Shown: positions 18,713 through 35,072 of the stretch, in pieces
How the letters are laid out: every line of letters starts with the position of its first letter
Position numbering within the stretch: position 1 is the stretch's first letter
Sequence record: CP103806.1
Reading direction: 5' to 3' (one strand)
Source of the DNA: Clostridioides phage Hain-Saunders-2022a
Length of the DNA stretch: 35,072 bases
The notes under the pieces: model-generated
What the model was told of the DNA's origin: nothing
The model's input: the letters and a program-made list of their open reading frames with translations, nothing else
The model's database searches: none
Made by a program: the position numbers and the translations under genes

Positions 18713-19075
18713 ATGAAAAAAACATGTACTAGAATAAAGCAGTTAAGAGAATCTGAGGGAATGAGTCAAATACAATTCGGAGAAGCACTCGGAATGACTA
18801 GAGATACGGTATCAAACTTAGAAAATGGAAGAACTAAGATAAAGGAAAGTGATTTGAAATTAATAATTTCTACTTTTAAAGTAAGCGAGAGCTGGTTAAG
18901 GACTGGTGAAGGCGAAATGTTCGATATTTCAAATAAAAACACTATAAAGGCAGAAGCTTTTTGCGCAATAGACGAAAATGAAAAACTAGCCAAGGCTGTA
19001 TTGGAATTTAGCAAATTAACAGACGAGCAACTCGAATCAATTTTGAAAATTTTAGAAGTATTTTCTAAAGAATAA
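18713..19075 (+). CDS. XRE-family HTH repressor (CI-like, no peptidase domain)
   Basis: N-terminal HTH (IKQLRESEGMSQIQFGEALGMTRDTVSNLENGRTKI). It is divergent from the early operon. Confidence 0.85.
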   Translation: MKKTCTRIKQLRESEGMSQIQFGEALGMTRDTVSNLENGRTKIKESDLKLIISTFKVSESWLRTGEGEMFDISNKNTIKAEAFCAIDENEKLAKAVLEFSKLTDEQLESILKILEVFSKE

Positions 19076-19108
19076 AAAGCTATCATCTCAATTTTGATAG
19101 CTTTTTTA
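19076..19108 (+). terminator. intrinsic terminator (AAGCTATCA / TGATAGCTT stem followed by a T6 run)
   Basis: Perfect 9-bp inverted repeat immediately after the repressor stop codon, followed by TTTTTT. Confidence 0.7.
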
Positions 19109-19550
19109 TATGTACACATTTATTTTTTAGTTTTTTTCCTTAAGTATAAATAAATAATTTCTAATAATTCTCTATCCCCAATCGAATCTATCATTTTTTT
19201 TATTTCTTCTTTCAAATCAATCATCCCCCTATATATATTAGTAGAATAATACATTCTTAAATTGTAAAAAAATAACTTACAATTTCAATTATACCCCTTT
19301 TTGTTCGATTGCACAAGAACATATGTACGATTTTTTGTCGTAATTAATTCTTTATACTACAATAATAGTACCTTTTATCGGATTTTGCTAGTGGAAAATA
19401 ATTCCAATTCAAAATACATTGAATTTTCTTGCATTAAAAAATCGTAGGGTCAAATTTTCTAATCTTTTATTTAAGAAGTAATATAGCTAAATAGGCATTT
19501 TAAAGTATTATATCTTAGTTATTTTTTAGTTTAACTGGTTAATTCTTATC

Positions 19551-19614
19551 AAAAAGTCAGTCGAGTAGGAATTTATATATATATATATATTAAATCCTAC
19601 TCGACTGACTTTTT
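19551..19614. terminator. hairpin 1 (20-bp perfect stem AAAAAGTCAGTCGAGTAGGA / TCCTACTCGACTGACTTTTT, (TA)9 loop), bidirectional terminator-like
   Basis: Read directly from the sequence. An A-run precedes it and a T-run follows, so it would terminate transcription from either strand. Confidence 0.6.
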
Positions 19615-19785
19615 GTTCTTAGATGCAAATTTCTAGTTGCTCTATTAATTCAGTTTCTTTTTCAATTTTAAGTTCCTTATCTAGTTCTTTATTTAAGAAA
19701 CAATGTAGTTAAATAGCAACTTTGAAGTATTTTTCAAATATTATATCTTAGTTATTTTTTTGTTTCAACTGGTTAATTATTATCA

Positions 19786-19854
19786 AAAAGTCAACGGGTC
19801 TGACTTTAATATATATATATATATATATACTAAAATCAGACCCGTTGACTTTTT
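19786..19854. terminator. hairpin 2 (19-bp perfect stem AAAAAGTCAACGGGTCTGA / TCAGACCCGTTGACTTTTT, (TA)11 loop)
   Basis: Read directly from the sequence. The stem sequence differs from hairpin 1, but base pairing is fully preserved. Confidence 0.6.
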
Positions 19855-20021
19855 GTTTAGATGCAAATTTCTAGTTGCTCTACTAACTCTATTTCTTTTT
19901 CAATTTTTAAGTTCTTTATCAAATTCAATAGTTAAGAAACAACTTAGTTAAATAGGCACTTTGAGGTATTTTTCAAATATTATATCTTAGTTGTTTTTGT
20001 TTTAACTGGTTAATTGTTATC

Positions 20022-20085
20022 AAAAAGTCACGGGGTTAGGAATTTATATATATATATATATTAAATCCTAACCCCGTGACTTTTT
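20022..20085. terminator. hairpin 3 (20-bp perfect stem AAAAAGTCACGGGGTTAGGA / TCCTAACCCCGTGACTTTTT, (TA)9 loop). This is the terminator of the helicase gene.
   Basis: It starts 3 nt after the helicase stop codon (20088) on the minus strand. The U-tract is UUUUUGAU. Confidence 0.7.
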
Positions 20086-20087
20086 GA

Positions 20088-22325
20088 TTAAATACAGATT
20101 TCTAATTGTTCTGTTGACTCTGCTTCTTTTTCTTTTTCAATTTTAAATCCTATATCAAATTTATTGTTTAAAAATGCTTTTTCAATTTCATCTAATCGGT
20201 TTAACAACTTTTGTTTTCTTGTGCTTATAGCATTTCTTAAACTTAAATCATTTTTTTCCAATTTTAAATCCTTTTCTATATCCTCTATTTTTATATATCT
20301 TTCAATCTTGTTTATTCGCATCCTGTCATTGTCTATAAATTCAATATCGGGCTTATTGTTCTTGTAATATGAATAATTTTCTAACGCTTCAAAGTTTCTG
20401 TGTTGCTTGACTTTCACTACAAATATATTTTTTAAGATAGTTCCTAGTTTAGTGGTTGTTAACTTCCAATCATCTCCTAGAATTATACCTAAATCGTTAC
20501 TTAACTCTTGTAAATTGCATTCTGTATAAGCTGTTCCAACACCAAATAATTTGTCTATGTAGTTATATGCAACAACTTCTATTAAGTTATCATTTAGCAA
20601 ATTTGGATGTTCTTCTTTTAACTCTCTGTAGATGAGATTATTTATTTTATTAAATATATTACCTCTCTTATTGTTGCCCATGTTGGCAAGTTTCCAGGAT
20701 AACCCTAAACTATAGTTATGTTCAAGTACATATTTAGAAAATAGTTCAATTTCGTTGTAACAGTCCGCTTTGTCGATTAAATAATCTATATTATACTTAA
20801 TGTGTGCCTGCTTATAATCGTCCTCTGTTATTTTATTATAATTCATATAGGTCATTAGGTTAAAATCCTTAGAACCCCTTTTAATTTGCTCGTAGCCAAC
20901 TAGATATTTTTTGTTTTCTTCTAAAGTTTTTAATGTAGCTTTCTTAATTTCTTTTAAAACTTCTTTGTATTCTTTTATTTGCTGTGTTGTTTCTTGACTT
21001 TGTTCCTCTATATTTTCTATTTTTACATCTTTGAAATATTCTTCTAAAAGCACTTTTAAGCTTGCGATACTTCTACTATCGTAATATCTCGAGTATGTGT
21101 TACTTATAATGAATAATTTATCTATTTCATAGCATTTATTTTTAATAGAGTAATATACATTAGAGTCAAGGCTGAAAGGCATAAGGTCTATTCCGACTGT
21201 TTCAAATCCCGTTACCCTTTTGCTGTTTAATTCGTTATATAACTCTTTTAATTTGTTTGCTCTTTTAAAATTGATTTTAATTATGTCATTAACTTTGTAG
21301 ACTTTATTGTTTCCTTCTGTTTCTTTGAAATTGTTAAAAATATGCACTCTCACACGTTTCAAATCTCTAAATCTTGCAACATACTGTTTTATTGTCGCAG
21401 GGTCTTTGAACCCAACTATCACAATATCAGTTATGTCTTTATTTTTTATATTGACACCTGCCAGAATTGTTGTTGTATTTAGTAGTACTTCATATTCTTT
21501 CATGTCTGAGTGTTGTATTATTCTTTTGTACAATTCGCTTTTAATCTTAATATCTGCATGAACAATATCACTTTTTTTTGTTGTTAATTCATCTATATAT
21601 TTTAAATCTTTTTTACTGTTATAAAGAACAGCGCTATTTTTAGATTTGTTAAGAATTTCTATTATTTTATCTTTATTTATATTGTCATAAAGCCTTACAT
21701 CATATTTAGTATTTTTTTCTTTTATATACTCTATTATGTAATCATAAATTTCAAATTCCAGCTTAGTTGGTGTTGCTGTTATATCTATTCTGCCTTTACA
21801 TTTATTTACTACATTGTTGAGATTTTTTATTGCTTTTTTCCTATAAGAATCTGTGTAGGTCTGATGTATTTCATCAACAACAATTATGTAATCACTTAAA
21901 TCTATGTTTAATAATTGTTCTGTTTTATCCCATGTCATGACTGCTAGGTTTCCAGTTTTTAATGCTTTTGTCGCAGGAAGTAAGTCATATGCACCTGGTA
22001 CATCATATTCCTTCATAGCCTGTTCTACATTCGCACTGTTTGGCAATATAAATAATGCTTTTGTATTCATTTTTTTAAGCGCATTTATGAAACTATAACT
22101 TTTACCTGTTCCAGTTTCTGCAATTAACAGAACCGTCTCTCCTGCTCCTGCTCTTGCTATTGCGTTATATATTCCACTCTTTTTTTCATCTATATATTTT
22201 TTTATTTTATGCGTTTCTTGTCTTTCAAATTTTGCGTAATTTTCTATCTCTCCTAGCGCTCTTTCTAAGTCGCAATCATTTTCAAATAATTTATCTATAT
22301 TATTTTTCTTAACTTTTTCCATCAT
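20088..22325 (-). CDS. SF2 helicase (DEAD/DEAH-like ATPase core, ~350 aa) fused to a ~400-aa K/N/Y-rich C-terminal domain of unknown function
   Basis: Walker A (AETGTGKS), DEIH box (VVDEIH) and a motif-VI-like QYVARFRD. RBS AAGGGGGA. It stands alone between the repeat array and the accessory island. Confidence 0.85.
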   Translation of the reverse strand: MMEKVKKNNIDKLFENDCDLERALGEIENYAKFERQETHKIKKYIDEKKSGIYNAIARAGAGETVLLIAETGTGKSYSFINALKKMNTKALFILPNSANVEQAMKEYDVPGAYDLLPATKALKTGNLAVMTWDKTEQLLNIDLSDYIIVVDEIHQTYTDSYRKKAIKNLNNVVNKCKGRIDITATPTKLEFEIYDYIIEYIKEKNTKYDVRLYDNINKDKIIEILNKSKNSAVLYNSKKDLKYIDELTTKKSDIVHADIKIKSELYKRIIQHSDMKEYEVLLNTTTILAGVNIKNKDITDIVIVGFKDPATIKQYVARFRDLKRVRVHIFNNFKETEGNNKVYKVNDIIKINFKRANKLKELYNELNSKRVTGFETVGIDLMPFSLDSNVYYSIKNKCYEIDKLFIISNTYSRYYDSRSIASLKVLLEEYFKDVKIENIEEQSQETTQQIKEYKEVLKEIKKATLKTLEENKKYLVGYEQIKRGSKDFNLMTYMNYNKITEDDYKQAHIKYNIDYLIDKADCYNEIELFSKYVLEHNYSLGLSWKLANMGNNKRGNIFNKINNLIYRELKEEHPNLLNDNLIEVVAYNYIDKLFGVGTAYTECNLQELSNDLGIILGDDWKLTTTKLGTILKNIFVVKVKQHRNFEALENYSYYKNNKPDIEFIDNDRMRINKIERYIKIEDIEKDLKLEKNDLSLRNAISTRKQKLLNRLDEIEKAFLNNKFDIGFKIEKEKEAESTEQLEICI

Positions 22326-24004: not shown

Positions 24005-24180
24005 AAAATACGATATTGTAAGCACAATATTTATATATTTTAAATACAATGTATGATGCATGATTAAAATATTGTATTTATATTGTAAAAATATTGTTTA
24101 TAAAATATTTTTACATTTCTATATATAATATTAAAATATTGTTGCAATATTGTAAAAATAATACTACAATAACATTATAA
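24005..24180. promoter_or_regulatory. array of at least 7 ATATTGT / ACAATAT motifs (palindromes ATATTGTaagcACAATAT and AATATTGttgCAATATT) upstream of parA. Candidate parS centromere and par operator.
   Basis: The motif copies are at about 24013, 24024, 24068, 24080, 24090, 24136 and 24146. Confidence 0.55.
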
Positions 24181-24206: not shown

Positions 24207-25016
24207 ATGGCTGATACAAAATTAATTGTATTTTTCAATACAAAAGGCGGGATATATAAGACGACTACAACTATTATGACGGCATACGAACTTGCAAAAG
24301 ATAAAGATAAAAAAATTCTTCTTTGGGACTTAGATCAACAGGCAAATTTAACTCAATATGTTTATAAAACTAATCACGATAAAAAGACTACATTAGATAT
24401 GTTAAAAGACGTTAGGGCTGAGGAAATTATTATTAAATCTTTTAATAAATCTTACCCAAATATAGATTTAATAGCTTCCGACATTTTGATGGCTAAATTT
24501 GAAAGAGAATTATTTTCTTTCCCAGCTCGTGAACAATTTTTGGCTCGCTGGTATATGAATAATTTTGATGTATTAAGTGAATATGATTATATATTTTGCG
24601 ACTTATCTCCTAAATATGATTTGACGGCTATGAATGCTTTATTTTTAGCTGATAGTGTAGTTATTTTAATTAAAGATAAAAATGTTTCTAGCTTAAGAGG
24701 GGCAGATTATTTTAAGCAACTTTGGGATATAGATAGAAGTTATTTTAAAAAAGAGGATAATATAAAAGCAACAGTTTTAGTCGGCTTCGAAAAGAAAAGA
24801 ACGGCGGTTAGCAACACATTTGATTCTTACTTAAAAGAGTTTAATGTTTTAAGGAATATGATGTTAAATACATATATAAGAAAAAATGAGTTTATTGAGC
24901 AAGCATTAATGAAAAAATTATCTTTAACAGATTATACAAAAATAACTAAAGAGCATTTTAGTAGACAAGAGTTTACTAGCATGTTAGAAGAATTAAAAGA
25001 AAGAGGTGTGTTATAG
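24207..25016 (+). CDS. parA: ParA/Soj-family partition ATPase (deviant Walker A)
   Basis: KGGIYKTTTT deviant Walker A near the N-terminus. 269 aa. RBS AATGAGGTG. Confidence 0.9.
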   Translation: MADTKLIVFFNTKGGIYKTTTTIMTAYELAKDKDKKILLWDLDQQANLTQYVYKTNHDKKTTLDMLKDVRAEEIIIKSFNKSYPNIDLIASDILMAKFERELFSFPAREQFLARWYMNNFDVLSEYDYIFCDLSPKYDLTAMNALFLADSVVILIKDKNVSSLRGADYFKQLWDIDRSYFKKEDNIKATVLVGFEKKRTAVSNTFDSYLKEFNVLRNMMLNTYIRKNEFIEQALMKKLSLTDYTKITKEHFSRQEFTSMLEELKERGVL

Positions 25017-25346
25017 ATGCCAGTATTCAACAAAGACCTTTTAGAAGAAAAAGAAAAGCCACTTTTGAAAAGTGGTACAGTTGGGCAGGAAAATATTATT
25101 TCTACGGATAGCGATAAAACATTAAGTATATATAATCTAGTTAATAAGAAAAGTAAAAAAGTAACTATGAGTGCAACACTAGACAAAGAGCTTGTAGACA
25201 AGTTGAAGTCTCTTGCAATAGACTTAGATAGTGATGTAAGTAAAATATTAAGTGATATGTTAACAAAGCTTTTATATGATGTAGATGTAAAAGAAGAAAA
25301 TTTAATCGCTTATAATGAAAGAAGAAAGACAAAGAATAATAAGTGA
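25017..25346 (+). CDS. small ribbon-helix-helix centromere-binding protein (ParG/ParB-like partner of ParA)
   Basis: 109-aa ORF that starts at the parA stop codon. The C-terminal RHH-like segment is KKVTMSATLDKELVDKLKSLAIDLDSDVSKILSDMLTKLL. Confidence 0.65.
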   Translation: MPVFNKDLLEEKEKPLLKSGTVGQENIISTDSDKTLSIYNLVNKKSKKVTMSATLDKELVDKLKSLAIDLDSDVSKILSDMLTKLLYDVDVKEENLIAYNERRKTKNNK

Positions 25347-25445
25347 TACATTGTATATATATTGCTTGAATATTGTATTAATAATATTCAAGCAATATTT
25401 TTATATTATTGCATATACTATTTAAATATTGTAATTATATTGTAT
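25347..25445. repeat. second cluster of ATATTGT-family motifs with a 16-bp inverted repeat ATATTGCTTGAATATT ... AATATTCAAGCAATAT downstream of the par operon
   Basis: 25358-25400 and further copies up to 25445. The motif is the same as in the array upstream of parA. Confidence 0.7.
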
Positions 25446-25670
25446 TTATAATATTTTGCCTCTATTGCAAAATGGGCATTGTTCTATATAATACCCTCCT
25501 GCACTTCCTGGTCTACTTTTTATATCAATCCCTGCTAATCGTAATTGGCGTGCATATTCTTTTACTTGTCGCTCTGATATGTTTAATTTATTAGATATTT
25601 CGCTTGTTTTTAATATTTCATTTTTCTTTAAAAGCATTATAATCTTAAAAGCATTATCTATTTTGCCCAT
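25446..25670 (-). CDS. winged-helix HTH transcriptional regulator (HTH_11/DeoR-N-like) with a C-terminal CxxC
   Basis: LKTSEISNKLNISERQVKEYARQLRLAGIDI is an HTH. 74 aa. Confidence 0.6.
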   Translation of the reverse strand: MGKIDNAFKIIMLLKKNEILKTSEISNKLNISERQVKEYARQLRLAGIDIKSRPGSAGGYYIEQCPFCNRGKIL

Positions 25671-28208: not shown

Positions 28209-29387
28209 TTATAAAACTCCTTTTATTTCACTTATCGTATTTGATAATATTTCTTTACTTCCTTTTAACTCTGTAAATAAATCGTCTAATGCTTCCTTTA
28301 CATTTGTAACACTTGCAACAGCATCATTTGTATAAGGAACTTGACTTGCACTTTCTATTTGTGTTCCATCTGCGCCAGGCTCTCCAGGGTCACCTTTTTC
28401 TCCTTTAGCGCCAGGTTCTCCAGGTTGCCCAGGCTCTCCAGGGTCACCTTTTTCTCCTTTAGTACCAGGTTCTCCAGGTTGCCCAGGCTCTCCAGGGTCA
28501 CCTTTTTCTCCTTTAGCTCCAGGGTCGCCCTTTTCCCCTTTGACATTTCCTATATTGACCCACTCTGTTCCAAATACATACAAAAAACCATTTATGCTAT
28601 AAGCGTCCCCAACTTCTGCATTTGCTGGTAGTTCATCAGTACTATTTAAGACACCTTTTATTTTTATACTTGCCCCAGCGTCACCCTGGTCACCTTTTTC
28701 GCCTCGGTCGCCCTTATCGCCTTTTTCGCCTTTTTCTCCTTTTATATTCCCAGCATCAACCCAAGTTGTTCCATCCCAAACGTACAGGTCGCCTTGTATA
28801 AGGTAAGCGTCGCCTTCTTCTGCATTTGTTGGGAGTTTGTCAATAGTATCAAAAGACCCTTTTAGAGTTAGCCCTGCGCCCATATCGCCCTTATCACCCT
28901 TGTCGCCTTTATCGCCTTTTAATTCTTCTTTTGTTGGTATTCTTTTAATTGCTTCATCTATTTCTTTAATTTTGCCGTCTATTGTATCCTTTATATTAAT
29001 TACTTCTTTTATAATGTCCCAGTCGGGTGTATTTTTCAATTCTTCATTTCTGTTTATCCCTTCAACAACATTAAAAGTAATTGGATATGTTGCAACAACT
29101 TGCTCGTTTTTATATAGAACAATTTCAGCTGTAGTTTGCCCAGCTGTTTTTAATATGTTATTATCTAATTTTGTTATTATTAAAGAATCTTGTGTAGTGC
29201 AATTTCTTTGATATGTTTTATTTTTTGAGTCTTTAAAAAACGCCTGGACTGTATAACCTGTTAAATCTGCATTTACACCATTTTCAACTAATTTAATCTT
29301 AAAATCTATGTCATTGTCATACTGCTTAAATGTTGCAATCTGATATAAGCTTTTATTAATATCTATAATATAAATTGAATCTCTCAA
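28209..29387 (-). CDS. collagen-like (G-X-Y repeat) tail fiber protein
   Basis: Three blocks of GDKGDKGD / GEKGDPGEPGQPGEPG triplets that alternate with repeated globular segments (DAYLIQGDLYVWDGTTWVDAGN / DAYSINGFLYVFGTEWVNIGN). Confidence 0.8.
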   Translation of the reverse strand: MRDSIYIIDINKSLYQIATFKQYDNDIDFKIKLVENGVNADLTGYTVQAFFKDSKNKTYQRNCTTQDSLIITKLDNNILKTAGQTTAEIVLYKNEQVVATYPITFNVVEGINRNEELKNTPDWDIIKEVINIKDTIDGKIKEIDEAIKRIPTKEELKGDKGDKGDKGDMGAGLTLKGSFDTIDKLPTNAEEGDAYLIQGDLYVWDGTTWVDAGNIKGEKGEKGDKGDRGEKGDQGDAGASIKIKGVLNSTDELPANAEVGDAYSINGFLYVFGTEWVNIGNVKGEKGDPGAKGEKGDPGEPGQPGEPGTKGEKGDPGEPGQPGEPGAKGEKGDPGEPGADGTQIESASQVPYTNDAVASVTNVKEALDDLFTELKGSKEILSNTISEIKGVL

Positions 29388-33050: not shown

Positions 33051-35072
33051 CTACACTAAGATACCATGGCGCTTTAAATATAAAGATGCTTTTCGCATTA
33101 AGTCGTCCATGTCCTGTTCTCTGTTATTATTGAAGTTTTCTATATTTAAATTAAAACCTCCTAAGATACTATTTGTATCTTCATTTACATTATTATTTTT
33201 CTTTTGTGTCTCTTTTTCTGCTGTATAATTTGTTGCAACTGCAATACTTTGCGTTGCTTTTGTAGACTCTAAATCGACTGTAGCTTTTAACCTATTTGCC
33301 AAACTAGATAAATTATTATCCATATCTTTCTCAAGACTTGGAGTTTCTACATCTATACCAACGCCAACACCTCTAACTATATTAGCCCCTATGATGTCTC
33401 TAAAAACTCTAGACGGCGAATGTATTCCAAGCACTGATTTAGCTTTCTTTAAAATACTATTTGCAAATCCACCAACTTTCCCCGTTAGCCATTTTATATT
33501 GCCCGATATTCCTTTCCATAGTCCAGTAACTATGTTTTTCCCAATGCTTATAAATTTTTCTGGGAGGGTCTTAACTGTATTAATAAAAGCATTTACTAAA
33601 GACGTTGCCGACTTTTTTGCTGAACTTGCTAAGCTACTTCCCCAGCTAGCAATTTTTGTTACAACTTGTTTTAAACAATTCCAAATTTTTGCAGGAAGTT
33701 GAGAAAAAAACTTAACTATATTATTTAAAAAGTTTGTTCCAATTTCGACAGCCTTATTTTTAATAGTAGTTCCCCATTCGCTAATTTTAGTTACTACTAT
33801 TACAAGCCCATTCCAAATTTTCCCTGGAAGTTCAGTAAAAAATTTTACTATAGTATTAACAAAGTTTGTTCCAACTTCAACAGCTTTATTTTTTAAATTA
33901 GTACCCCATTCCCCAATCTTAGTTACTACAGCCGAAAGACCTTCCCAAATCTTGCCAGGAAGTTCAGCGAACCATCCAACAATAGACTCTATGAGTGTTG
34001 GAATAGTTTCAGTAAAAAAAGCTACAATAGAGTTCCAGCCATTTACAAATCCATCTCTTAAGCCTGCCATTATATTCCCAGCTATATCTGCAAGACCCGA
34101 GAAAGCACTCCCCAAGAATCCAACAAAAGAGGTAAATGCGTTTGGAATAATTTCAGTAAAAAACTTACATATACCACCGAATACAGTCATAGCAACTTCT
34201 TTAATATTATTCCACGCTGTTATAACTGCATTTCTAAAGCCTTCATTTGTATTCCAAAGATGTACAAGTCCAGCTACTAATAATCCAATCGCAACCAAGG
34301 CTATAGTAAAAGGGTTCATTGACATAACTAGTGCTAAAGCTTTTTGTGCTACACTTACAGCTTGCGTTATAGCTTTAAATTGCTTAAATGCTTCGACCAT
34401 TTTCTGAACTTTATCAACTGCTTTAAACACTGCAAAAGCCCCACCAAGTAAGCCGAGCGCTGGAATAATTATATTAATATTTCTTACAAAAGCCGTCAAT
34501 AAAACTGATAGCACTTTAAATGCAACCTTAAAAGTTGTTGCTATTGCTGGTATCTTATCTTTTATGGATGCTGAAAACTTTTCTATCTGAGGAACTCCCT
34601 CCTTAGCGAACCAGTTCGCAAATTCGTTTAAAAGAGGTAAGACGGCTTCACCAAGAGGTAATAATACACCAACTTCTAGTTGTCTTTTTATGCCTTCTAT
34701 GGCTTCGCCAAAACTATTATATTTTATCTCATTTATCTTATCTAGTGCGTCAACGCTTCCAGATATTTTCCCATCCATATCAGTAAGTGCCTTAACTGCG
34801 TCCTCGCCCAAATCTTCCCATTTTGTCCCAAAAAGCTGGACACCAAGTTGGTTTCTCTTAACATCATCTTCGACATTTCCAAGCGCTGTTGTAACTTCCA
34901 TAAAAGCCTCTTTTGCATCTTTACCACCTTTTGCAAACTTAGCTGTTAATTCATCTGCATTAAGCCCTAAATCTGCAAAAGCTTGCTTTGTACCAGCTGA
35001 ACCGTCTTTAGTTCGTATTCCAAATTCTTTGACTGCATCATTTAAATAATCTAGCTGATATACTCCATTTTC
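33051..35072 (-). CDS. tail tape measure protein, C-terminal 673 aa. The gene begins beyond the window end and is completed by 1..615.
   Basis: The reading frame is open from 35072 down to the stop at 33051 (674 codons). Translation gives ENGVYQLDYLNDAVKEFGIRTKDGS.. then Ala/Gly/hydrophobic helical repeats and ..GIHSPSRVFRDIIG.., which are typical tape-measure segments. Confidence 0.85.
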   Translation of the reverse strand, partial: ENGVYQLDYLNDAVKEFGIRTKDGSAGTKQAFADLGLNADELTAKFAKGGKDAKEAFMEVTTALGNVEDDVKRNQLGVQLFGTKWEDLGEDAVKALTDMDGKISGSVDALDKINEIKYNSFGEAIEGIKRQLEVGVLLPLGEAVLPLLNEFANWFAKEGVPQIEKFSASIKDKIPAIATTFKVAFKVLSVLLTAFVRNINIIIPALGLLGGAFAVFKAVDKVQKMVEAFKQFKAITQAVSVAQKALALVMSMNPFTIALVAIGLLVAGLVHLWNTNEGFRNAVITAWNNIKEVAMTVFGGICKFFTEIIPNAFTSFVGFLGSAFSGLADIAGNIMAGLRDGFVNGWNSIVAFFTETIPTLIESIVGWFAELPGKIWEGLSAVVTKIGEWGTNLKNKAVEVGTNFVNTIVKFFTELPGKIWNGLVIVVTKISEWGTTIKNKAVEIGTNFLNNIVKFFSQLPAKIWNCLKQVVTKIASWGSSLASSAKKSATSLVNAFINTVKTLPEKFISIGKNIVTGLWKGISGNIKWLTGKVGGFANSILKKAKSVLGIHSPSRVFRDIIGANIVRGVGVGIDVETPSLEKDMDNNLSSLANRLKATVDLESTKATQSIAVATNYTAEKETQKKNNNVNEDTNSILGGFNLNIENFNNNREQDMDDLMRKASLYLKRHGILV

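Follow-up and report, generated by a model that had tools for sequence, protein, structure and literature searches.

The genome of Clostridioides phage Hain-Saunders-2022a (sequence record CP103806.1) contains an unusual tandem array immediately downstream of a leftwards-transcribed helicase gene; we refer to the whole 35,072-nucleotide stretch that was analysed as the window. The array is made of three head-to-tail units of ~236 bp. In each unit a degenerate copy of the 3' end of the helicase gene (..EQLEICI*) is accompanied by an almost perfect palindrome, CAAAAAG-stem-(TA)8.5-10.5-stem-CTTTTTG, and by a short AT-rich stretch that includes a TATAAT sequence. We propose that the three palindromes probably act as factor-independent, bidirectional terminators with unusually long stems, stacked one after another behind the helicase gene. 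The components of the array, with the helicase gene that it follows, are these:

19455-20170, minus strand (helicase sense): the whole array, three head-to-tail units of ~236 bp.
19455-19690, 19691-19929 and 19930-20165: units 1, 2 and 3.
19550-19615: hairpin 1, stem TCAGTCGAGTAGGAAT with a (TA)8.5 tip; 21-bp perfect stem, RNA folding energy about -39 kcal/mol on both strands.
19784-19855: hairpin 2, stem TCAACGGGTCTGAC with an (AT)10.5 tip; RNA folding energy -49.0 kcal/mol (minus) and -40.8 kcal/mol (plus).
20021-20086: hairpin 3, CAAAAAG-TCACGGGGTTAGGAAT-(TA)8.5-..-CTTTTTG; 23-bp perfect stem, the presumed working terminator of the helicase gene.
19616-19700, minus strand: helicase-tail pseudo-copy 1 (..LNKELDKELKIEKETELIEQLEICI*), identified by translation and by blastn against the helicase tail, with neither an upstream open reading frame (ORF) nor a ribosome-binding site.
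19619-19642: the tail block of pseudo-copy 1, TTAGATGCAAATTTCTAGTTGCTC.
19856-19940, minus strand: helicase-tail pseudo-copy 2 (..KIEKEIELVEQLEICI*), with its tail block at 19857-19880.
19941-20020, minus strand: segment B of unit 3, which follows the hairpin in the helicase sense and carries TTAACCAGTTAA and a TATAAT.
19701-19783 and 19455-19549: the other two copies of segment B.
19507-19512, 19740-19745 and 19979-19984, minus strand: the TATAAT (-10) sequences of units 1, 2 and 3.
20088-22325, minus strand: the 745-aa SF2 (ResIII/DEAD) helicase, with matches to Pfam ResIII and DEAD and a full-length match to PHROG 5173.

A first-pass annotation of the window had described three head-to-tail units of 235-238 bp, and this is borne out by Tandem Repeats Finder (19498-20061, period 239, 2.4 copies, 83% matches, score 746), by gap-free repeat families with three copies spaced 231-239 bp apart, and by an alignment of the three units with a mean column identity of 83%. 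It also quoted the three stem sequences correctly, and every difference between the stems is indeed compensated on the opposite arm. The loops are pure TA runs as described, although slightly shorter (8.5, 10.5 and 8.5 repeats) than the (TA)9-11 reported. The stems of hairpins 1 and 3 are perfect, while hairpin 2 has 20 contiguous base pairs followed by two C.A/A.C positions that would pair as G.U in the minus sense but be A.C in the plus sense. Complementarity runs on through the (TA)n tips and into the flanks, and the stems reach 34 bp if the self-pairing (UA)n is counted.

All three hairpins have the anatomy of a terminator on both strands, in that a GC-rich lower stem is bordered by the A5 and T5 tracts of the shared CAAAAAG..CTTTTTG flanks, and hairpin 3 starts only 2 nt past the helicase stop codon. 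It is on these anatomical grounds that the earlier proposal of bidirectional terminators, with unit 3 the real one and units 1 and 2 as copies with no gene attached, finds support. The predicted RNA structures are very stable, with folding energies of -39 to -49 kcal/mol for the three hairpins on both strands (z -10 to -13) that none of 200 shuffled sequences matches; for hairpin 3 the values are -43.6 kcal/mol (minus) and -42.6 kcal/mol (plus), with z about -10 to -11 and a DNA energy of -28.5 kcal/mol. No Rfam 15 family matches anywhere in the window at gathering score, and at permissive thresholds only generic long-hairpin (miRNA-precursor) models appear, all of them sub-threshold. The geometry of the array hairpins is outside that of typical terminators (a stem of about 5-14 bp and a loop of 3-8 nt), and a terminator consensus scan recovers only hairpin 2, on the minus strand, by including some of the (TA)n in the stem. 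Elsewhere in the window, terminator-like hairpins have stems of 10-13 bp and loops of 4-9 nt.

At 21-34 bp, the perfect RNA duplexes are of sufficient length for RNase III, and with hairpins located immediately 3' of the gene it can be imagined that they are processing sites through which the stability of the helicase mRNA is set from its 3' end, as in lambda sib/tI retroregulation, and that copy number tunes both the amount of helicase and the copy number of the plasmid. No specific sign of processing is seen, however, and a terminated helicase mRNA would carry only the first hairpin, leaving the extra copies idle unless there is read-through; we regard this as the least probable of the explanations considered here.

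The stems vary greatly in sequence and hardly at all in pairing. Searches of related phages and plasmids yielded 14 distinct lower-stem alleles that could be aligned as a 21-pair helix; following the constant CAAAAAG, examples include TCAGTCGAG-TAGGA, TCAACGGGT-CTGA, TCACGGGGT-TAGGA, TCACGCAAG-TAGGA, TCAGTCGAC-CTGGA, TCACCGGAG-TAGGA, TCAGCAACC-CTGG, CCGGGAG-TAGGA and CCGGGGT-CTGA. Pairing is retained in 97.2% of the cells of this alignment, falling to 32-53% when the partner columns are slid by 1-3 positions, and the observed pairing and covariation scores are not attained in any of 500 column shuffles. Ten of the 21 pairs have changed on both sides (52 cells), there is no pair with variation on one side only, and G.U is present in just four cells; a hand tally of the mismatches, G.U versus A.C by strand, gives about six in the minus sense and four in the plus sense. 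A 2-nt length difference between alleles (GTCACC.. versus GCC..) is likewise mirrored on the opposite arm. The suggestion that structure rather than sequence has been kept is thus well supported, and because pairing is conserved in all of the relatives, a neutral duplication without conservation of pairing is not borne out; the extra copies nonetheless still look like by-products of recombination.

Between the units of the window the variable stem parts differ at 31-69% of positions, the tail and B segments at 10-28%, and the flanks with the A- and T-tracts at 0-10%. At fourfold-degenerate sites of the helicase gene, the window is 41-44% different from its nearest helicase relatives and 48-59% different from the alleles of phiCD38-2, phiMMP04 and JD032. 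The stems have therefore changed to about the level of neutral sites between phage lineages, two to four times as much as the remainder of their own unit, and always on both arms. One candidate cause of the excess is that whole tail-plus-hairpin blocks were imported from other phages, to which the linkage between particular tails and hairpins lends support; homogenisation of the non-stem parts, or a mutational process that changes both arms at once, may be others.

If both strands must work as terminators, only Watson-Crick pairs would be tolerated, since every G.U corresponds to an A.C in the opposite strand, and the stem sequence would then be free while its pairing is fixed. Intrastrand templated copying within the palindrome may also change both arms together, and the arm symmetry may be kept by two-strand selection, by DNA-level templated correction, or by both. 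Taken further, the second mechanism offers a different account of the whole array, in which the palindromes are DNA phenomena, the covariation reflects mutation mechanics, the extra copies are functionless scars, and at most one copy is a terminator. A (TA)n-centred palindrome would stall replication or be cleaved, and template-switch repair would duplicate or delete sequence at microhomologies and copy one arm to the other (quasipalindrome correction). Template-switch mutation at quasipalindromes is an established mechanism (e.g. PMC7202029), and it accords with the near absence of G.U and of one-sided pairs, the mirrored 2-nt indel, the complementarity that extends through the tip into the flanks, the differing (TA)n lengths in near-identical phages, and array junctions at (C/G)AAAAAG. 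Paired changes of 31-69%, close to the fourfold-degenerate level (41-59%), are moreover hard to reach through two independent changes per pair. Against it, the hairpin is kept at one locus across two genera with its A- and T-tracts in terminator register, and imperfect or chimeric hairpins exist (L009 hairpin 2, CD2301 and L173), so that correction is not instantaneous. As a full explanation this seems unlikely, although it is the most credible of the competing accounts; it is compatible with at least one copy being a terminator and largely complements the terminator interpretation. Given that both genera keep the element at a single locus and in terminator register, we regard the DNA-level process as a likely contributor and not a full alternative. 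Quasipalindrome hotspots and palindromes with AT-rich centres resemble the array in that centre, in arms that remain perfectly complementary or become so, and in the local duplications and deletions that go with them, but they are described as mutational hotspots and not as conserved elements at one locus across genera, and here the A- and T-tracts and the post-gene position are superimposed. A more radical version, in which the (TA)n palindromes are self-correcting DNA elements that provide a hotspot of recombination and replication and so promote helicase-allele exchange between C. difficile phage-plasmids, or have a plasmid replication or copy-number role, with the resemblance to terminators being secondary, we consider doubtful.

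The imperfect members of the family are located at L009 2887-2950, L002 3362-3428 and L173 about 1500-1570. The two arms of L009 hairpin 2 have different cores (GTAGGT versus ACGGGT), as if recombined within the (TA)n; the CD2301 hairpin has two differences between its arms; and in L173 a single G has become A, giving a G.U in the helicase-sense strand.

The window is related to the phiCD38-2 group of C. difficile siphophages (Leicestervirus), with about half of its first 25 kb covered by megablast at ~83% identity; the phages matched are slur17, AR1075-1, CDSH1, phiCD38-2, phiCD111 and phiCD146. The array region has 73-84% matches to these phages and to the phiMMP04/CD2301 group (Sherbrookevirus). 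We find the hairpin family in ~25 phage and plasmid records and ~12 IMG/VR contigs with 1-4 copies each, and it is restricted to one locus, between region C (a conserved non-coding region directly downstream of the array in the helicase sense) and the 3' end of the helicase gene or of gp36, a gene whose homologues are inserted after the helicase in some relatives. In these relatives the hairpin is 2-61 nt past the helicase or gp36. The copy numbers are as follows:

One copy: phiCD111, JD033, phiMMP04, CD2301, phiCDHM13 and several plasmids.
Two copies: the group of phiCD38-2, phiCD146, CDSH1, slur17 and AR1075-1; L056.
Three copies: the window.
Four copies: L009.

A search of IMG/VR with the specific pattern CAAAAAG-N-(TA)7-N-CTTTTTG identifies only 11 contigs, of which the nine that can be oriented carry the hairpin at this same locus, and the remaining two have a known allele or the tail block at the contig end. 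With the same pattern, a genome collection yields one C. difficile contig at this locus and a second, unrelated match, and a metagenome scan returns only unrelated (TA)n palindromes. A plasmid collection adds only the phiMMP04 allele and one single-mismatch variant. A broader pattern, AAAAAGTCA..TGACTTTTT, gave mostly chance matches in IMG/VR and was set aside. We note that several of the unrelated metagenome contigs contain perfect palindromes that are (TA)n-centred and A5/T5-flanked (L138 5883-5950, L140 697-752, L148 3010-3065 and L150 622-693), and (TA)n-tipped hairpins resembling bidirectional terminators may be a wider phenomenon. The only public contig with exactly the helicase of the window, the 2827-bp Logan contig SRR16474718_274 (L170), ends 47 nt past the stop codon, at the first hairpin. 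Short-read assemblies evidently break at (TA)n palindromes, and such arrays will thus be under-represented in assemblies.

The arrays differ not only in copy number but in how their parts are joined. Units 1 and 2 of the window are collinear with the two-unit array of phiCD38-2 (73.6% over 765 nt), and this type of array therefore predates the split of those lineages; the units in these two phages are about 236-260 bp. The four hairpins of L009, by comparison, are separated by spacers of 32, 65 and 25 nt, all of them helicase-tail fragments, with junctions at which the GAAAAAG of a tail meets the CAAAAAG of a hairpin. The L056 array has yet another junction, unlike that of L009, and phiCD38-2 retains signs that a hairpin was lost by deletion between these short repeats. 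These differing junctions indicate that a block composed of the helicase 3' end plus hairpin has been amplified and has decayed repeatedly and independently at microhomologies, and the length of the (TA)n varies even between near-identical phages. We suggest that the array was not purpose-built, and that a piece containing the helicase 3' end, its terminator and a short downstream sequence would have been duplicated, partly deleted and exchanged between phages, in repeated, independent events with junctions at short (C/G)AAAAAG microhomologies that would leave dead helicase tails behind.

The tails themselves are consistent with such exchange. The first-pass annotation had noted copies of the last ~15 codons of the helicase gene, and the minus-strand ends that it gave (..ELKIEKETELIEQLEICI, ..EKEIELVEQLEICI and ..KIEKEKEAESTEQLEICI*) are correct, but the homology is longer, about 86 nt or more, the template being the last ~30 codons of the helicase. 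Nearly all differences between the pseudo-copies and the real tail fall at third positions of codons, and the copies have matches among the genuine helicase tails of other phages. Tail 1 is similar to the tail that ends the helicase gene of CD2301, and the hairpin core that goes with it (GTCGAG) differs little from the GTCGAC of that phage. Tail 3 resembles the L009 tail, and its core CGGGGT-TAGGA matches the hairpin attached to the helicase gene of L009. The last ~50 nt of pseudo-copy 2 are identical to phiCD38-2 gp37, and the 36-aa family to which gp37 belongs, PHROG 28159, matches helicase residues 710-745. The gp37 gene is at L001 3373-3483 and is annotated in phiCD146 as well; on sequence grounds the gp37 genes of phiCD38-2 and phiCD146 are most likely dead helicase tails, pseudogene remnants rather than genes.

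A 24-nt block, GARCAAYTAGAAATTTGYRTYTAR, which encodes EQLEIC(I/V)*, is located directly 5' of every hairpin in the helicase sense, with the exception of two of the four L009 hairpins. It is kept even outside of any ORF (phiCD38-2 hairpin 2 and phiCD111), and in phiMMP04 it overlaps the end of a different gene in another reading frame. Where the block varies, it does so at third codon positions, which points to descent from real helicase genes.

The retention of this block, which resembles a seed-plus-terminator layout, together with the minus-strand TATAAT in all three units, raises the question of whether the units are tandem sibling small RNA (sRNA) genes, in which a promoter in segment B would give a trans-acting transcript of ~190 nt with a sequence like the helicase 3' end, terminating at the next hairpin. 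The best promoter-like site is in unit 2:

19740-19768, minus strand: TTGAAA-17-TATAAT, 11 of 12 matches to consensus; it would give a ~190-nt transcript ending at hairpin 1.

Units 1 and 3 have poor -35 elements, however, and promoter-like sites are not enriched in the region (11 versus 13.3 expected). The arrays of L009 and L056 lack segment B, having spacers of 25-65 nt or of helicase tail that leave no space for it, two of the L009 hairpins lack the 24-nt block, and the codon-like variation of that block is expected for coding ancestry and not for an RNA seed; there is also no Rfam match, nor was a target identified. The earlier idea of a short terminated RNA mimicking the helicase 3' end is therefore weak, the near-consensus promoter being confined to unit 2. 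Tandem sibling sRNA genes such as Listeria LhrC1-4 have in common with the array their head-to-tail units, each with a possible promoter and terminator, but here the promoter segment is not conserved in related arrays and the conserved block varies as codons do. Overall, we think it improbable that the units are sRNA genes.

Segment B is a strict blastn match only to the window among the fetched loci, and a pattern composed of the exact promoter and palindrome segment has no match in IMG/VR. In a looser alignment it is collinear through the helicase-derived segment that follows the hairpin in phiCD38-2. Homology of this segment to helicase coding sequence farther upstream is clear in phiCD38-2 and not significant for the segment B of the window.

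Two other candidate assignments for the array were dropped. Its small ORFs (23-31 aa, on both strands) have no ribosome-binding sites and do not resemble hydrophobic toxins, and the idea of a type I toxin-antitoxin system was discarded; gp33, the toxin known from this group of phages, is encoded on the other side of the helicase (PMC7699646). A likeness to the C. difficile CRISPR repeat amounts to a 10-nt match in one unit that is not conserved in the other two.

Because the array adjoins the only helicase gene of a phage-plasmid that encodes ParA, we also considered whether it could be a replication origin or another DNA site acting in cis (a cruciform, an unwinding element or iterons) used by the helicase. 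AT-rich palindrome centres extrude easily, the DNA hairpin energies are -26 to -28.5 kcal/mol, and nucleotide-level conservation of the flanks and the 24-nt block extends to all of the relatives. The first-pass annotation had pointed in this context to a short palindrome of the TTAACTGGTTAA type in each unit. It is exact at 19531 and at 20002 (not 20003, as given), and the copy at 19765 has one mismatch (TCAACTGGTTAA). There are six matches to TTAACTGGTTAA in the window versus 4.5 expected, and it is absent from the homologous segment of phiCD38-2; this short motif (TTAACNNGTTAA, 6 versus 4.5) is thus neither enriched nor conserved. There are no short phased iterons, the repeats being units of 236 bp and not direct repeats of ~17-22 bp. 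Many relatives have a single hairpin, and JD032 has no (TA)n hairpin. The variable part is the stem sequence, which is what a sequence-specific initiator would read, and the tip also varies in length, which is unsuited to protein sites of fixed geometry; likely centromere repeats are present elsewhere, beside parA. Iteron-type plasmid and phage origins resemble the array in being repeated, AT-rich, palindrome-bearing non-coding stretches next to a replication gene, but the array units are mostly pseudo-coding and without a short conserved binding repeat, and copy number in the relatives goes down to one. GC skew tracks gene orientation only, without an origin signal. The origin or iteron suggestion is not upheld by these comparisons, and we regard such a role as very unlikely.

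The neighbourhood of the array, and the partition genes, are as follows:

18713-19075, plus strand: a cI-like helix-turn-helix repressor.
19074-19106: a conventional bidirectional terminator (12-bp stem, 9-nt loop, A5/T6 flanks) that separates the cI-like repressor from a 34-aa ORF.
19120-19224, minus strand: the 34-aa ORF, MIDLKEEIKKMIDSIGDRELLEIIYLYLRKKTKK; conserved, PHROG 19640 with no function assigned, convergent with the cI-like repressor.
~19200-19450, minus strand: region C, upstream of the 34-aa ORF; homologues at L001 3001-3237, L004 3001-3250 and L009 2591-2753, among others.
24207-25016: ParA ATPase.
25017-25346: ribbon-helix-helix (RHH) partner of ParA.

The ParA and RHH genes indicate a plasmid-prophage lifestyle, as described for phiCD38-2 (PMC7699646). 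No relative of the helicase with a solved structure was found.

Region C is 82-91% identical among Leicestervirus and Sherbrookevirus phages, and since it differs by only 9-18% where fourfold-degenerate sites of the helicase differ by 41-59%, it is under strong constraint. It contains several inverted repeats (AATTCA..TGAATT, TACTA..TAGTA, TACGA..TCGTA and TGTTC..GAACA) and a TATAAT (plus-strand ATTATA at 19289-19294), and it is probably the regulated promoter and leader of the immunity module. Hairpin 1 is the last hairpin before it. In phiCDHM13 and L009 a further short hairpin, GTAGGGT..ACCCTAC, with a T-tract behind it in the helicase sense, stands just ahead of region C, and the only hairpin at this locus in JD032 is a short conventional one of the same kind. 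Stopping helicase-sense transcription before region C thus looks like a conserved requirement. We propose that hairpin 3 would end the helicase transcription unit and hairpins 2 and 1 would provide back-up stops, together keeping helicase-sense transcription out of the promoter and leader in region C and out of the adjacent immunity genes; they would also block plus-strand transcripts from running antisense into the helicase gene.

Ordinary bidirectional intrinsic terminators have the same GC-rich stem, flanking A- and T-tracts, position directly after a stop codon, and combination of free sequence with constrained pairing. The array differs from them in having stems of 21-34 bp versus about 7-11 bp, a loop that is a self-pairing (TA)n microsatellite, and, in the family, up to four tandem copies each with a dead gene 3' end. 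A closer parallel for stem length is TerR of plasmid pLS20, which is also located at the end of a transcription unit of a Gram-positive mobile element and has a stem far longer than average. Experiments on that plasmid showed that stems of about 14-15 bp or more make intrinsic terminators resistant to processive antitermination, and that it is length and not sequence that matters (PMC10325885). The array stems, at 21-23 bp or more, exceed this length and are at the end of a transcription unit, although TerR is a single functional copy with a 15-bp stem and a 7-nt loop. By analogy, a length effect of this type would fit as a rationale for very long stems with free sequence in this position. No antiterminator was recognised among the ORFs scanned, in a search that was not exhaustive. 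We conclude that the kind of element is a known one, intrinsic terminators left in tandem by recombination, and that its form is unusual in its very long stems, microsatellite tips, 1-4 copies, and compensated, near-neutral turnover.

Several observations weigh against the terminator interpretation. Stems of 21-34 bp go far beyond what an ordinary terminator requires. A conventional terminator at 19074-19106 already serves the repressor, which shows that repressor transcripts need not reach the array; bidirectional use is an assumption, with no plus-strand transcript identified that needs stopping there. The near absence of G.U and the mirrored 2-nt change fit a DNA-level symmetry at least as well as selection at the RNA level, and the extra copies may have no function at all. 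Finally, with the stems differing by 31-69% and the tail and B segments by 10-28%, simple duplication in place followed by drift does not explain this contrast.

Other repeats are present elsewhere in the window. The parA/RHH pair (24207-25346) is flanked by degenerate repeat arrays with an 11-bp period (24066-24160 and 25350-25457), and there is a perfect palindrome with a 16-bp stem at 25359-25398, after the RHH gene; these are candidate partition (centromere) sites of the phage-plasmid. A minus-strand ORF at 28209-29387 contains tandem repeats of 9, 18 and 54 bp (CCAGGTTCT..) at 28375-28523 and 28688-28916, which read as Gly-X-Y-like on the minus strand and give the product, a probable tail or fibre protein, a collagen-like look. 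A 132-bp tandem repeat of ~2 copies, 79-83% identical, is located at 33678-33967 within a 616-aa minus-strand ORF (33051-34901). The minus-strand ORF at 13274-14344 matches phage phosphoadenosine-phosphosulfate reductase families (PHROG 424 and 2302).

For the annotation of these phages, the array implies that small ORFs annotated in relatives, such as phiCD38-2 gp37 (PHROG 28159), are most likely dead helicase tails. That paired changes have reached a near-neutral level, with G.U and one-sided intermediates all but missing, suggests that templated symmetry in the DNA can look like RNA covariation, and this is a caveat for inferring structure from covariation in palindromic terminators; should the palindromes prove to be self-correcting, they would be a natural and conserved case of such elements evolving at about the neutral rate. 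If the hairpins are indeed stacked terminators, the locus would offer a test set for covariation methods and a source of orthogonal, non-repetitive strong terminators for AT-rich Firmicutes, and it would provide a clean natural example of terminator evolution, with 14 stem alleles, complete compensation and 1-4 copies at a single locus.

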